Both the position numbers and the translations under genes were made by a program. From positions 1 through 24,149 of the forward strand of contig VBHS01000291.1 of NCBI GenBank assembly GCA_005881295.1: a stretch of 24,149 nt of DNA, in the 5' to 3' direction. How positions within the stretch are numbered: the first letter of the stretch is position 1; every line of letters begins with the position of its first letter. A model generated the notes under the pieces. It was not told where the DNA came from and did no database searches. It saw only the letters and a list, made by a program, of their open reading frames with translations. This DNA is from Chloroflexota bacterium (GTDB taxonomy: Bacteria > Chloroflexota > Ktedonobacteria > Ktedonobacterales > Ktedonobacteraceae). Positions 13,778 to 19,176 of the stretch are shown here, piece by piece.

Positions 13778-16729
13778 ATGTTAGGTGAGCGTCCCCCCTT
13801 CACCAATGATCAGGAACATCAACGACTGGTAACTGCGCTGCGTGAAAGTGAGATTTTGCGTGAATTAGCAGAGCTTTTAGCATCCTCGCTCGATCTCAAA
13901 AATATTTTGCACGCATTGACTAAACGTACAATTGAGGTCTGCGAAGTAGAGCGCTGCTCTGTCTGGCTATTCGATGACACTCGCAATGTTTTTCTCCCCA
14001 CTGCCTATTACCTTTCCACGGAGCACGTTGACCGTAAAAAAATCACAGCCGCGGATCATCTCTGGTATCATGGCTCTATCTTCTTCGAGGACCCTCACCT
14101 CCCCCGCCTTCTCCAGGAAAAGGGTCTGCTCCTTGTTAAAGATCTATTGAATAATCCCAGGGCACGAAAAGTGGCAGAAACATTTCTTGTGCGCTCTGTA
14201 TTACTCATTGCGCTCAAGCGCGAAGACCGCATCCTGGGTATGATGTCCCTTGATGACCCGGCTCAAATACGCGACTTCTCCCAGGAGCAGCAACAACTTG
14301 CACGCGCTATTGGACAACAGGCAGCACTTGCCATAGACAATGCTCGGCTCTACCAGCAGGCACAGGCAGAGCGAACACGCGCTGAACGGTTGATTGAACG
14401 TGCCCGCGCAATTTATCAGGTAGCATTAACCGTCAATTCAGGGGAAGATCTTTCGGTTGTGCTCAAAATCGCTACACAACACCTGGTTCGCGGACTAAAC
14501 GCGGATAGTGGTGAGATTATGCTCATAAATTCTCAGACGTTATACCTGGCTAACAGTACAGGGCCGCAACAAACACATTTCAATGAACCACTCATCACAG
14601 CCACTACACTGCAAGACCTACCTGACTGTCAAAAGGCGGCTACCACTGGTTCGCCCCTCTTTTTGAACATCCATCAAATGACGGGATCCGAACAGCCTTT
14701 TTTTCAAAAGCTCGGCTTTGATAATGTGATGATTGTCCCGCTGATGGCCGGCGGTGTTCGTTCAATAACCTCCACACCAGGTACCCAGCCGGCATCTTCT
14801 AGTTCTCAGTGCATTGGCTTCGCCTTTGTCAACTATCGAGACTCGACCTATCACCCCACTCAAGGTCAGTTTGCCTTTGCTCAGGATATTGCGGCCCAGT
14901 GTGCGCTTGCTGTGAAAAAAGATCAACTCCTGGCAGATGTCCGTAATTCTGCTAAGCTGGCAACCGAACGGGCAAATACGCTCGACGCTGTTTTCCAGGC
15001 CATGAGCGAAGGAATAACCGTTGTCAACCAGGATGGAGAAGTTCTTGTACGCAACAACGCCGCCTCGCTCTTTCTCGGAGTTCCAGTAAACTCTACTGAT
15101 CGATTACAATCGTTTCTCAATCGTTACCCGACCCGCTCGATGCATGGGCAACCGCTTTCGTACGATGAATTCCCGGTTGCGCGCGCCCTCAAAGGTGAAC
15201 GCATCCGTGGTGAACGATTCGTGACCGTCCGGGGTGATGGCGTCGAGCGAGTGATAGAGGTAAATGTCACTCCCATGTTGGATGAGGCGCAAAAACAGGT
15301 AGGGCTCGTCAGCGCCTTTCGCGATGTCACACAGCAAACACGCGCCGAGCAGCGTGTTCGTTTGGCGCTCGAAACAATGCTCAATGTAGCGGAAGCTGTT
15401 TCCGGCATTACCGAAATAAAAGATATTCTCGATAGTGTCCTGGAAATGACGCTCTCTACTCTCAACTGCGAGCGGGGCTCCGTCCACCTCTTTGATCAAA
15501 GTGAAGAAGCGTTTACCTTCCTGTTGTCCAGGGGATTCAAAGATAATGAAGTAGAAAAAACATGGCTATTCGAGCAGAGCCGCTGGCTTTCTCCAGAGGC
15601 ACATCAGTATCAAGGGTTCCGTAGACAAATATTAGAAGGCCATGCCACCGTCATTAACGCCGAGCAGTACGACAACCAGCCCAATCCATTCAACCAGACA
15701 ATGGTACTTGCCGCACCTATCACTCACAATCATCACATACTTGGCTTGATAACCCTGGATCGCTCATCATCCCATTCAAAGAATATCCCTCCTGGCGAAA
15801 CTGAACAACCATCTGTACCGCTTGATTTTTCTATCTGGGATATGGCAGTCATCGAAGGTATAGCGCAACTTGCCGGGCTGGCAATCGAGCAGGCCCGCTG
15901 GCAGCAAGAAGCTGTGGACGCGCGCACGAGCGAAGCCGCAATGCGCGAGGCAAATGCTCTAAAAGACGAATTTCTGGCTATCACCGCTCACGAATTTCGT
16001 TCACCTCTCACTGTTATTCTCACTCATAGTCAGGTCGCTTTACGTATGTTGCGCAAAGGAACAGATCCACAGAACACACAACGAGTGGCTGATAGCCTTA
16101 CAGCGATTGAGGAACAAGCTCACCAATTGACAAATATCGTCAATACCTTCTTAGAAGTAACCCAGATCAACCGCAAACAACTGGTTATCAACTCAGAACC
16201 TGCTGACCTTGCAGAGATTGCTAAACAGGTGGTCTCAGCCCATGGCTCTACGTCAACCGCTCACCAGATCGCTTGTCACATCGCACCCAGCGATCACCCT
16301 TATATCGTTATTGGAGACAGCGCACGCCTCAAACAAGTAATTGCCAACCTGGTACAGAATGCCATAAAATATAGTCCTCTCGGCGGTCCAATCACTGTCT
16401 CCATGTGCCAAAAAGAGAGTGAAATAGATAAGGGCAGTCGAACCATCGAAGTCTGCATTGAGGATTCAGGCATTGGCATTCCAAAAGAAGCACTCCCTCG
16501 TCTCTTCGAGCGCTTTTATCGAGGGTCCAATATCGATGGAAGTAAAACCAGGGGCATAGGTCTCGGCCTGTATATTGTCGCGGAACTGCTCCACATGCAC
16601 GGTGGGACTATCCGAGCTGAAAGCAGTGGTATACCAGGCGAAGGAAGCCGCTTTATTGTCACGTTACCTTCGTCCAATCTAGAGAAAGAACTTGTAGATA
16701 GTGATAGAGCTTCGCAATTGGCTCCTTGA
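13778..16729 (+). CDS. Cytoplasmic multi-sensor histidine kinase (GAF-GAF-PAS-GAF-HisKA-HATPase)
   Basis: GAF ends (IGQQAALAIDNARLY, IAAQCALAV, IAQLAGLAIEQAR); PAS (MSEGITVVNQDG...NNAA, VSAFRDVT); H-box AHEFRSPLT; N-box NLVQNAIKYS; G1 DSGIGI; F-box LFERFYR; G2 GIGLGL; no transmembrane helix. Confidence 0.92.
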   Translation: MLGERPPFTNDQEHQRLVTALRESEILRELAELLASSLDLKNILHALTKRTIEVCEVERCSVWLFDDTRNVFLPTAYYLSTEHVDRKKITAADHLWYHGSIFFEDPHLPRLLQEKGLLLVKDLLNNPRARKVAETFLVRSVLLIALKREDRILGMMSLDDPAQIRDFSQEQQQLARAIGQQAALAIDNARLYQQAQAERTRAERLIERARAIYQVALTVNSGEDLSVVLKIATQHLVRGLNADSGEIMLINSQTLYLANSTGPQQTHFNEPLITATTLQDLPDCQKAATTGSPLFLNIHQMTGSEQPFFQKLGFDNVMIVPLMAGGVRSITSTPGTQPASSSSQCIGFAFVNYRDSTYHPTQGQFAFAQDIAAQCALAVKKDQLLADVRNSAKLATERANTLDAVFQAMSEGITVVNQDGEVLVRNNAASLFLGVPVNSTDRLQSFLNRYPTRSMHGQPLSYDEFPVARALKGERIRGERFVTVRGDGVERVIEVNVTPMLDEAQKQVGLVSAFRDVTQQTRAEQRVRLALETMLNVAEAVSGITEIKDILDSVLEMTLSTLNCERGSVHLFDQSEEAFTFLLSRGFKDNEVEKTWLFEQSRWLSPEAHQYQGFRRQILEGHATVINAEQYDNQPNPFNQTMVLAAPITHNHHILGLITLDRSSSHSKNIPPGETEQPSVPLDFSIWDMAVIEGIAQLAGLAIEQARWQQEAVDARTSEAAMREANALKDEFLAITAHEFRSPLTVILTHSQVALRMLRKGTDPQNTQRVADSLTAIEEQAHQLTNIVNTFLEVTQINRKQLVINSEPADLAEIAKQVVSAHGSTSTAHQIACHIAPSDHPYIVIGDSARLKQVIANLVQNAIKYSPLGGPITVSMCQKESEIDKGSRTIEVCIEDSGIGIPKEALPRLFERFYRGSNIDGSKTRGIGLGLYIVAELLHMHGGTIRAESSGIPGEGSRFIVTLPSSNLEKELVDSDRASQLAP

Positions 16730-16752
16730 ACGCGCTAAAGCAATCATGGATA

Positions 16753-17025
16753 GTCAGCGACTCCACACCTGAATGGGTGGGGGCTTGCTCCGGCAAGCCC
16801 CGATGCTGAGCAGTCCCCAGGTGTAAGTACCTGGTAGCCCTTCGCGAAGAATGCATAGGCACTCCGGGGTGGCCTTCCAGTCCCGGACCCTGCGGCGCGT
16901 CGTTAAACAGCGAGATGGGGTTTCAATCGCAGTGCGGCTCGCATCCAAAGGAAACCTTCGCAGAAGTTGGACGAGGAAAACTTTACCCGGCGCTTGCCGG
17001 AGGCCCGAAAGGGCAAGAACAGAGG
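16753..17025 (+). ncRNA. omegaRNA scaffold of the IscB (OMEGA) system; guide is the 5' flank (about 16733-16752)
   Basis: About 280-nt structured non-coding leader of iscB: GTCAGCGACTCC...GGGGCTTG start, GGGGCTTGC/GCAAGCCCC hairpin, CACTCCGGG...CCCGGA, GTTAAACAG...CAGTG, GACGAGG, CCGGCGCTTGCCGG and GCCCGAAAGGGC hairpins. 3' end approximate. Confidence 0.8.
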
Positions 17026-17033
17026 ACTCAGCC

Positions 17034-18329
17034 ATGTCGTACGTCTTTGTGATTGATCAGGAGAAGCGGCCCCTCGATCCGGTTCATCCCGGTCGAGCCC
17101 GCAAGCTCCTCTCATCTGGGAAGGCAGCCGTCTACCGGCGATTTCCCTTTGTCCTGATTCTCAAGCATCCAGTTTCTGAAGCACATCCACAGCCCCTGCG
17201 CCTGAAAATTGATCCAGGGTCCAAGACAACGGGGCTCGCCGTCCTCAACGATACATCAGGACAGGTGCTATGGGCTGCGGAGTTGGTTCACCGGGGAGAA
17301 GAGGTCCACCAGGCGCTGCAAAAACGGGCTGGCGTGCGTCGAGGTCGCCGTTCTCGGCATACGCGCTACCGGGCGGCCCGCTTTAGCAATCGTCGGCGCA
17401 AACGCGGGTGGCTTGCTCCTTCGTTGTGCTCACGGATGCAAAATGTGCAGACCTGGACCAGGCGGCTGATGCGTTGGTGCCCGCTGGGTGCCATTTCCTA
17501 TGAGGCGGTGCGCTTCGACACCCAGGCCATCCAAAACCCTGAGATCAAGGGAGTCGCCTACCAACACGGAACTCTCGCGGGGCTAGAAGTTAAAGAGTAT
17601 CTTTTACTCAAATGGCGACATAAATGCGTCTACTGCCAAAAAGGAGATATCCCGCTCGAAGTGGAACATATCGTGCCCAAAAGACGTGGAGGCAGTGACC
17701 GGATCACCAATCTCACCCTGGCCTGCGAAGCGTGCAATCAACAAAAAGGCTCCCAAACCGCCCAGGCATTTGGCTTTCCCCACCTCCAGGCACAGGCCTT
17801 GCAACCATTAAAAGACGCAGCAGCAGTGAACTCGACACGTTGGGCGCTCTATGAACGACTCAAAGCCACAGGACTGCCGATCGAGGTCAGTACGGGGGGC
17901 CAGACAAAATGGAATAGGAAACAACGCGGCATTCCCAAGAGTCATTGGCTCGACGCTGTATGCGTGGGGCCATCTACACCAGAGCGGGTCCAGTGGCAAC
18001 ATGTTATCCCCCTGCTTATCACAGCCAGAGGCCGACAATGCCGCCAGCTTTGTAATGTTGACGGATGGGGATTTCCAAGGAGCCGCCCGAAAGGGCCAAG
18101 CAAAGTCTTTGGATTCCAAACGGGGGATATGGTTCAGGCAGTCGTCACCAGAGGGAAAAGGATGGGTACATATGTTGGACGCGTTGCCATTAAAACTGAT
18201 GGGTACTTTAAGATTACCGGCACACATGGCATGGTGGAGGGCATTCATGCTCGCTATTGCTCGCCTCTACATCGCGTTGATGGTTATGAGTATCAAAAAG
18301 GTTCGGCGGCGCTTCCTCCCCAGATGTGA
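17034..18329 (+). CDS. iscB: RNA-guided endonuclease IscB, 431 aa
   Basis: PLMP-type N-terminus (RPLDP..PGRARKLL), RuvC-I KIDPGSKTTG, Arg-rich bridge helix RRGRRSRHTRYR, RuvC-II YEAVRFD, HNH CVYC...EHIVPKRRGGSDRITNLTLACEACNQQK, RuvC-III SHWLDA; start at ATG 17034 behind AGAGGA. Confidence 0.95.
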   Translation: MSYVFVIDQEKRPLDPVHPGRARKLLSSGKAAVYRRFPFVLILKHPVSEAHPQPLRLKIDPGSKTTGLAVLNDTSGQVLWAAELVHRGEEVHQALQKRAGVRRGRRSRHTRYRAARFSNRRRKRGWLAPSLCSRMQNVQTWTRRLMRWCPLGAISYEAVRFDTQAIQNPEIKGVAYQHGTLAGLEVKEYLLLKWRHKCVYCQKGDIPLEVEHIVPKRRGGSDRITNLTLACEACNQQKGSQTAQAFGFPHLQAQALQPLKDAAAVNSTRWALYERLKATGLPIEVSTGGQTKWNRKQRGIPKSHWLDAVCVGPSTPERVQWQHVIPLLITARGRQCRQLCNVDGWGFPRSRPKGPSKVFGFQTGDMVQAVVTRGKRMGTYVGRVAIKTDGYFKITGTHGMVEGIHARYCSPLHRVDGYEYQKGSAALPPQM

Positions 18330-18456
18330 ACATCGGGGCCTCCGCGCCGCCTTCTGGTGAAGGAGCCGAAGACACTGCCCATGACTTTGATCACCTTGTC
18401 CGTGTCATGGCTATTGCAGATTCGATTCAAACGATCGAGGGAGGAGATCTTCTCAA

Positions 18457-19176
18457 TTAGCTTATTCGATAATTGAATGACGCCGCTTTCCTCGCTGCTG
18501 CGCTCAGGTGGACAGTAAATCCTACCTGTGGATGGAGAGTAACATACTGTACCACCACCGGACCTGGATCAGCCGTCAGTACCACAACTACGACACTCGA
18601 TGCGATAATATGTGCATTGGCAACCATAACCTCGCATTGCCCCTTCTCAAACCGACCTGAACCCGAGGTTTCTTGACCGTCTTCATCAGCACGAGGACCC
18701 ATAGGACCTGCAAGCCTGTCCACAGCTGGCATACTGGGATTGGTGTCCACTTCATAAGATCGCACCCCGGTCATTTCAGGTTTCTCAATTGCCTCCTGCT
18801 TGGGAACAACCTGCAAACGCACCTTTGTTGCACGTCTCGGTGAACGTTGCCTGCTTTGCACAGGACCAGGCGCTTCCGTTGGTCGAGAAACCGCTGCCCC
18901 CACTGTAGCTAGAGGAAGATAATCGGTTCGCACCTTCACTGATCTACTGACCGCCGGCAACTGTTTAGATTGAAGACTCAGGCGCGGGGGAATAAGCGCC
19001 GTACTTTTTATGATAGGGACATTATCTTCAACCTCGTCTGATTCCGGGTCTTCCTGAGCAGACACATCTGTCAACGCTTCTTCAACTGAGGCCGAGAGGT
19101 CAAAGCGCTCTCTTGCCACACGCGCTTGCCATTGCTGCTGCTCTTTCTCATCAATGTCATCAAGCCAGTCCATCAT
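18457..19176 (-). CDS. Hypothetical protein: acidic helical N-terminus, disordered middle, beta-rich C-terminal domain of about 70 aa
   Basis: 239-aa ORF with GAGGT RBS (start may be the second ATG, 19173); fills the gap between the IS end and the methyltransferase. Confidence 0.7.
   Translation of the reverse strand: MMDWLDDIDEKEQQQWQARVARERFDLSASVEEALTDVSAQEDPESDEVEDNVPIIKSTALIPPRLSLQSKQLPAVSRSVKVRTDYLPLATVGAAVSRPTEAPGPVQSRQRSPRRATKVRLQVVPKQEAIEKPEMTGVRSYEVDTNPSMPAVDRLAGPMGPRADEDGQETSGSGRFEKGQCEVMVANAHIIASSVVVVVLTADPGPVVVQYVTLHPQVGFTVHLSAAARKAASFNYRIS

Follow-up and report, generated by a model that had tools for sequence, protein, structure and literature searches.

A 24,149-nucleotide stretch of DNA from a Chloroflexota bacterium of the Ktedonobacteraceae (assembly GCA_005881295.1, contig VBHS01000291.1, positions 1 to 24,149, forward strand; hereafter the window) carries a non-autonomous IS200/IS605 element at positions 16753-18356. 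The element is composed of a HEARO RNA, a type now called IscB omegaRNA (16753 to ~17033), and an intact iscB gene (17034-18329) that encodes a protein of 431 aa. An initial annotation made from the letters alone had proposed a complete IscB OMEGA locus here, with a readable guide and GTGAA as its 3′ target-adjacent motif (TAM). The analysis described below upholds this proposal. In our judgment, this is very probably an intact non-autonomous element whose sole cargo is iscB and its omegaRNA, and which homes by IscB cleavage of the empty joint that is left upon excision.

The features of the locus are given below, with the transposon's ends, left (LE) and right (RE), named according to the strand recognized by the transposase TnpA.

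16753..17033, plus strand: omegaRNA scaffold (HEARO), modelled by RF02033 over 16753-16986, after which two more small hairpins lead on to the ribosome-binding site of iscB
17034..18329, plus strand: iscB coding sequence, 431 aa, recognized by Pfam, catalytic residues, the ratio of nonsynonymous to synonymous substitution rates (dN/dS) and a structure model
16733..16752, plus strand: predicted omegaRNA guide encoded by the flank, outside the element and within an HD-gene remnant, abutting the scaffold start at 16753
18357..18361, plus strand: TAM GTGAA (TTCAC on the TnpA strand, 5′ of LE), which belongs to the host site and lies outside the element
16753..16757, minus strand: transposon-encoded motif (TEM) marking the boundary of RE, read as CTGAC on the TnpA strand and as GTCAG on the iscB strand
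16761..16787, minus strand: RE subterminal hairpin (~16761-16783) and RE DNA guide CAAG (the complement of 16784-16787), from a single-stranded DNA fold
18305..18356, minus strand: LE on the TnpA strand, with nested hairpin, GAGG guide and 5-nt spacer (18352-18356), from an inverted repeat and a single-stranded DNA fold
16701..16752, plus strand: 5′ remnant of the interrupted HD-domain gene; its GTG start and the end of a histidine-kinase gene overlap
18357..18460, plus strand: 3′ remnant of the interrupted HD-domain gene, closed by a premature stop

Element boundaries and the empty insertion site

On direct reading of the letters, the scaffold starts with GTCAGCG at 16753, the element terminates in ...TTCTG at 18356, and GTGAA follows at 18357-18361. 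These ends were tested in three independent ways, by means of an empty junction in metagenome data, the genomes of relatives, and a comparison with other copies. A metagenome collection was searched with a 26-nt query that spans the junction predicted for a site lacking the element (...CATGGATA/GTGAAGG..., where the slash marks the joint). One contig, WNFJ01747108.1, was matched, and it carries the predicted junction verbatim. It shares 94.8% and 93.4% identity with the window over its two flanks. The left flank aligns to position 16754, the right flank resumes at 18357, and nothing lies between them.

The reconstructed junction is also colinear, with no indel, in the genomes of six relatives (G003, which is of the same genus, plus G026, G030, G022, G035 and G012). 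Two minor matches in a further genome, G024, were left out of the analysis. In the empty sites the host flank is continuous with the sequence from 18357 onward, and GTGAA is present at the empty site both in WNFJ01747108.1 and in G003. The metagenome junction and the six relatives thus reveal a scarless empty site without a target-site duplication. The empty site reconstructed in the initial annotation is therefore matched exactly in one contig and colinearly in six genomes.

Other copies of the element agree with these boundaries. In 10 same-family copies (same family and order), the homologous stretch starts exactly at GTCAG(C/T)GACCCCACG, and the DNA upstream of this point is unrelated. The start of the scaffold shared among these copies reads GTCAGCGACCCCACG. 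At the opposite end, of the copies whose right end is readable, the five closest (L004, L108, L005, L111 and L009) finish with ...TTTG or ...TATG, then GTGAA, then unrelated DNA, such that these copies end before GTGAA as had been predicted. Across the wider family, RTGA is in place after the end of the element, and the same layout occurs with either ATGA or GTGA.

The insertion lies within the 5′ portion of an HD-domain gene that was truncated already, and it has the orientation of the histidine-kinase gene upstream. The G003 ortholog of the interrupted gene encodes a 223-aa HD-domain protein (Pfam HD, 4e-13), and its GTG start overlaps the end of a GAF/PAS histidine-kinase gene. When the element is removed, the flanks of the window rejoin in frame as VIELRNWLLERAKAIMD/SEGAEDTAHDFDHLVRV... 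and read VIELRNWLLE..., like the G003 ortholog. The rejoined gene nevertheless stops early, because its 3′ part lacks ~570 nt that G003 has. The empty-site contig shows the same truncation together with the loss of another 46 nt (18404-18449), and in G004 the HD gene has been lost altogether. Because the truncation is shared with an empty site and the gene is gone from G004, the HD gene was already in decay, and the IscB element is not its sole lesion. The bias in orientation among IscB elements has been ascribed to a need for external transcription of the guide (Meers et al. 2023, bioRxiv 10.1101/2023.03.14.532601), and the co-orientation with the kinase gene fits this bias.

IscB, its omegaRNA and the transposon ends

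The iscB open reading frame extends from an ATG at 17034 to a stop codon at 18327-18329. A Pfam scan of the protein identifies RRXRR at residues 4-179 (4e-69), and both HNH and HNH_5 at residues 198-247. The N-terminal PLMP/RRXRR region with its arginine-rich bridge helix is present and includes the motif RPLDPVHP at residues 12-19. The split RuvC domain is intact, with the Asp of RuvC-I (D60), the Glu of RuvC-II (E157) and the His..Asp pair of RuvC-III (H304/D307), and the HNH domain is located between RuvC-II and RuvC-III. In a HMMER alignment, catalytic residues D60 (in IDPG), E157, H212 (in EVEH) and H304/D307 (in SHWLDA) line up with those of OgeuIscB. Among 75 homologs, residues D60, E157, H212, N226, N235 and D307 are invariant, as are the zinc cysteines C198, C201, C231 and C234, and H304 is conserved in at least 90%. 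All the RuvC and HNH residues listed in the initial annotation are accounted for in this protein.

The relatives of known structure that match best are IscB-omegaRNA-DNA complexes, namely those of TbaIscB, HfmIscB and OgeuIscB. An AlphaFold model built from the 75-homolog alignment has a mean predicted local distance difference test (pLDDT) score of 85, and every one of its best structural matches is an IscB complex (lowest Foldseek E value, 6e-26). Residues 2-421 of the model superimpose on residues 3-495 of the OgeuIscB chain with a Z score of 22 and a root-mean-square deviation of 4.7 Å over 298 aligned residues. The C-terminal part of the protein has no match in Pfam. Since the model aligns end to end with OgeuIscB, this part is predicted to be the usual TAM-interacting region. 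A dN/dS of 0.10-0.11 was obtained against the nearest two genomic copies; iscB is intact and under purifying selection.

The closest proteins in the databases are from metagenomes and share 82% identity with the window IscB, and the best match at a named locus is a Ktedonobacteraceae metagenome-assembled genome. In a database search, five contigs are listed as encoding a protein identical to the window IscB. Many JGI records give the IscB family the name "McrA restriction endonuclease". The iscB frame is open for 61 codons further upstream, running through the omegaRNA as far as the ATG at 16851, and database homologs of 457-471 aa may be over-extended gene calls of this kind.

Directly upstream of iscB, on the same strand, Rfam family RF02033 matches positions 16753-16986 with 98.4 bits (gathering score 83, E value 2e-19). 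The match covers model positions 1-211, which is the full length of the model. The omegaRNA has a predicted folding energy of −116.9 kcal/mol (z −1.9). An nhmmer search that used the omegaRNA of the window as query recovered only 22 of 81 related loci. As a rule, the guide of IscB elements lies outside RE (bioRxiv 10.1101/2023.03.14.532601), and here the 20 nt at 16733-16752 that had been designated as the guide do adjoin the scaffold start. The effective guide is probably formed by the last ~14-16 of these nucleotides. A whole-genome off-target search found no other site that matches the 16-nt guide with one or no mismatch.

Because the HEARO side is RE and the TAM is 5′ of LE in the orientation of Meers et al., the minus strand of the window corresponds to the top strand of TnpA. 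Subterminal hairpins are formed at both ends on this strand. Read in TnpA order, it presents the TAM TTCAC, the cleavage point, the 5-nt spacer, a nested hairpin, and GAGG positioned 5′ of the inner foot. The outer stem of the LE hairpin pairs 18305-18312 with 18344-18351, and the inner hairpin (18318-18338) spans the iscB stop codon. The LE guide GAGG, the complement of 18339-18342, is directly 5′ of the inner hairpin foot. The single-stranded DNA fold of LE is calculated at −18 kcal/mol (z −3.3), and its architecture is kept in relatives. At the other end, the RE guide CAAG (−35 to −32 from the end at 16753) is 5′ of a CCCC...TTCA...GGGG hairpin, and the element ends with TGAC. Both tetranucleotides are located where the initial annotation had placed them.

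In IS608, position 2 of the cleavage site pairs with position 1 of the guide, position 4 pairs with position 4, and T1 pairs with A2. Both pairs in the window, TCAC with GAGG and TGAC with CAAG, fit this mapping. The loci of relatives also vary in the expected manner. On the LE side, the base that follows the hairpin on the iscB strand is C at 14 of 15 loci with a G-type TAM. At loci with an A-type TAM it is T in 15 of 24 raw calls, or in ~20 of 24 once mis-picks by the regular expression are corrected. On the RE side, elements that start with GTAA have CTTT or CTCT after the first hairpin (9/9 loci). Those that start with GTCA have CTTG at 14 of 20 loci and in all 10 of the same-family copies, and the exceptions are mostly cyanobacterial. 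The automated hairpin calls drifted by 1-2 nt and a strict regular expression missed loci of the wider family; a more tolerant parse took their place.

The covariation observed at both ends is consistent with an IS608-type pairing rule. The tree of IscB proteins contains at least three changes of TAM state, and the guide follows the TAM in two of three independent pairs and never changes in the opposite direction, a number of events too small for statistics. The initial annotation had taken the ends of the element to be fixed independently by the pairing rule. Both window pairs and the covariation agree with the rule, but only three independent switches are available, which is below what a statistical test requires.

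The ~56-nt hairpin region of LE is 85-91% identical at four further loci (L109, L110, L114 and L120, in G001, G022 and G034), beside IscB C-termini that are only 40-48% identical. At these loci, therefore, the end of the transposon is better conserved than its cargo. Matches confined to the right end were considered as cargo-less (PATE) elements, and this explanation was rejected on finding that these divergent IscB C-termini are present.

The pairing pattern permits a tentative proposal, which we consider doubtful, regarding the origin of the first TAM base. This base (G or A) might be set at the level of the transposase by the single LE-guide base beside the hairpin foot, with the nuclease tolerating either purine (RTGAD, RTGA). 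If this is true, then a one-nucleotide change would retarget elements between GTGA and ATGA sites with the protein unaltered. Alternatively, residue 341 of IscB (window 18054-18056) could be a protein determinant. Classified by their natural TAM, 10 of 11 G-type orthologs have Asn at this position, whereas 17 of 18 A-type orthologs have Lys or Arg. However, this pattern may reflect phylogeny only, as the measured TAMs of both residue types are RTGA-like.

Proposed homing cycle and alternatives

By analogy with characterized relatives, we infer that the guide is transcribed, that IscB cleaves DNA, that its actual TAM preference matches the natural site, and that the element is mobilized in trans. 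In the cycle that we envision, a Y1 TnpA supplied from elsewhere would fold both subterminal hairpins, and the tetranucleotides 5′ of the hairpin feet would pair with the cleavage sites (GAGG with TCAC, CAAG with TGAC). The element would then be excised as single-stranded DNA to leave the scarless joint ...CATGGATA/GTGAA.... Read-in transcription from the co-oriented histidine-kinase/HD operon could generate an omegaRNA whose 5′ guide ends with ...GCAATCATGGATA. IscB with this RNA is expected to recognize exactly the empty joint, since no other place combines a match to the guide with a TAM immediately after it (here GTGAA, in agreement with RTGAD). Cleavage of the joint by RuvC and HNH, followed by recombination with a sister copy, would reinstall the element. 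The occupied site would be spared because the guide is followed there by the TEM, GTCAG, which differs from the TAM in that it has no G at position 3.

Several observations weigh against this scheme. The dinucleotide GT is common to 16753-4 and 18357-8, so that the empty site alone leaves an ambiguity of 0-2 nt in the position of the junction. A consensus promoter scan revealed no promoter-like site upstream of the guide, and nothing rose above the shuffled expectation in a promoter and terminator scan; for this reason, transcription of the guide is only assumed. This IscB subfamily is represented by a single copy in the source genome (a 77%-complete assembly of 456 contigs), and thus there is no sign of recent transposition within it. 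In addition, the TnpA element resident on contig C224 of this genome has a guide/TAM pair that differs from that of the IscB element.

The last two points would be explained if the element were an immobile relic. According to this alternative, its ends and gene are intact, the lineage has no compatible TnpA, and IscB and its omegaRNA either have no current homing role or are drifting to loss. In its favor, another IscB locus in the same genome (on contig C386) is broken by a stop, and just three matches to Y1_Tnp were found in the genome by profile search, the best being the one on C224. However, a relic does not readily account for the presence/absence polymorphism, with its scarless joint, between genomes that are ~95% identical. 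Nor would it be expected to retain a dN/dS of ~0.1, both hairpins with both pairing tetranucleotides, and an omegaRNA that scores above the Rfam gathering threshold. We consider it unlikely that the element is a relic, and we favor a mobile element that homes through IscB.

The transposase that would act on such an element could come from C224. This contig carries an IS605-type element (L123:1291-3054) with tnpA (Y1_Tnp, 127 aa) and tnpB. Its LE has the nested-hairpin layout and the 5-nt spacer of the IscB element, together with a CATC guide for which the predicted target is TTGAG. The C224 TnpA is therefore a possible candidate for the partner that acts in trans.

The source genome also holds three further HEARO/omegaRNA loci, which belong to other subfamilies. 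The first (L126, C387:1383-2957) includes an IscB of 440 aa, intact and with 54% identity to the window IscB. The IscB of the second (L129, C386:531-1800) is 44% identical and reaches its stop after ~320 residues, and the omegaRNA of the third (L127, C39:5216-5457) is cut by the end of the contig.

The shared GT could also be taken to mean that the boundaries are shifted by 1-2 nt. The element would then occupy 16754-18357 or 16755-18358, with a TAM of TGAAG or GAAGG. This is what the 2-nt overlap in the alignment of the empty-site contig allows, where the left flank extends to 16754 and the right flank begins at 18357. The comparison of copies settles the matter. Immediately before GTCAG, the base varies among the 10 same-family copies (g, t, g, g, c, c, c, t, a, t), whereas the G and T of GTCAG are constant. 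Moreover, the right flanks hold GTGAA or RTGA in register, the TAMs measured for this clade (RTGAD, RTGA and VTGA) begin at that very position, and position 1 of the Rfam model is the G at 16753. A shifted boundary is accordingly very improbable, and 16753 and 18356 are taken as the true ends, as the initial annotation had them.

It is also highly improbable that IscB has been altered to a nickase or to an RNA-guided binder used by the host, with no role as a homing nuclease: domesticated RNA-guided relatives exist for TnpB, but the catalytic residues of RuvC and HNH and the zinc ligands are invariant here and in the 75 homologs (with H304 in at least 90%), the gene is still found between both transposon ends and next to the TAM, and the modelled fold is full length.

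Comparison with known systems

The closest characterized system is KraIscB6 from Ktedonobacter racemifer DSM 44963 (Altae-Tran et al. 2021), which has a TAM of RTGAD and a scaffold that starts with GTCAGCGACCCCAC (Kannan et al. 2025, PMC13180657 Suppl. Table 1). The two systems are of the same IscB subfamily, share the same omegaRNA start, have proteins of ~431-438 aa, and reside in Ktedonobacteria. They differ in that the proteins are only ~60-62% identical and the omegaRNA of the window is shorter. Specifically, the window IscB is 60% identical to P0108, a cluster representative with the N terminus of KraIscB6, and 62% identical to P0043, a named K. racemifer IscB.

The initial annotation had suggested that both this ortholog and its G-initiated TAM might be uncharacterized. 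For the TAM this does not hold. Since RTGAD has been measured for KraIscB6 and GTGAA falls within it, a G-initiated xTGA TAM is already characterized in this very clade. The same table gives VTGA for KraIscB3, RTGA for DphIscB1, and NTGA and VTGA for PolIscB1 and PolIscB2, and as a whole it includes 4 entries of GTGA, 10 of RTGA, 7 of VTGA, 16 of NTGA and 17 of ATGA (PMC13180657 Suppl. Table 1). For the ortholog the suggestion stands, in that the N-terminal motif of the window IscB is absent from this table.

The arrangement of the element resembles that of GstIscB in ISGst5 of Geobacillus stearothermophilus. Both are non-autonomous IS200/IS605 elements in which the omegaRNA is located at RE, the flank of RE contains the guide and the TAM is found 5′ of LE. 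For GstIscB, the HEARO side was assigned as RE and the TAM 5′ of LE is TTCAT, or ATGAA on the iscB strand; this TAM is read by TnpA as well as by IscB, which cuts the donor joint (Meers et al. 2023, bioRxiv 10.1101/2023.03.14.532601). In contrast to the window, its TAM begins with A rather than G on the iscB strand, and the LE guide base beside the hairpin differs correspondingly. The host phyla also differ, and a partner TnpA has been identified and tested for the Geobacillus element, whereas for the window there are only candidates.

More distant comparisons can be made with OgeuIscB and IS608. OgeuIscB (PDB 7XHT, 7UTN and 8CSZ) resembles the window protein in its fold, which is predicted to correspond end to end, and in the positions of the catalytic D, E, H and H..D residues. 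Identity over the aligned residues is only ~27%, the protein is longer (496 aa versus 431 aa), and its TAM, NWRRNA, is of another class. IS608 of Helicobacter pylori likewise has its subterminal hairpins on a single strand, is excised without a scar and makes no target duplication; its cleavage sites are recognized by tetranucleotides located 5′ of the feet of these hairpins, an arrangement with which the window element is consistent. Unlike the window element, it carries tnpA and tnpB, has no iscB and targets TTAC. What the window element carries is an iscB gene encoded opposite the top strand of TnpA.

The class of system, its type of TAM and the connection of the TAM with the transposon end are all already in the literature. 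What the window adds is one well-delimited natural element of the IscB type in which base-level positions are available for the occupied and empty sites, the guide, the TAM and both ends of the transposon. In Ktedonobacteria it is a ready substrate on which to test the model of homing by peel-and-paste and then cut-and-copy, and its IscB is a compact 431-aa candidate with an RTGA-type TAM.

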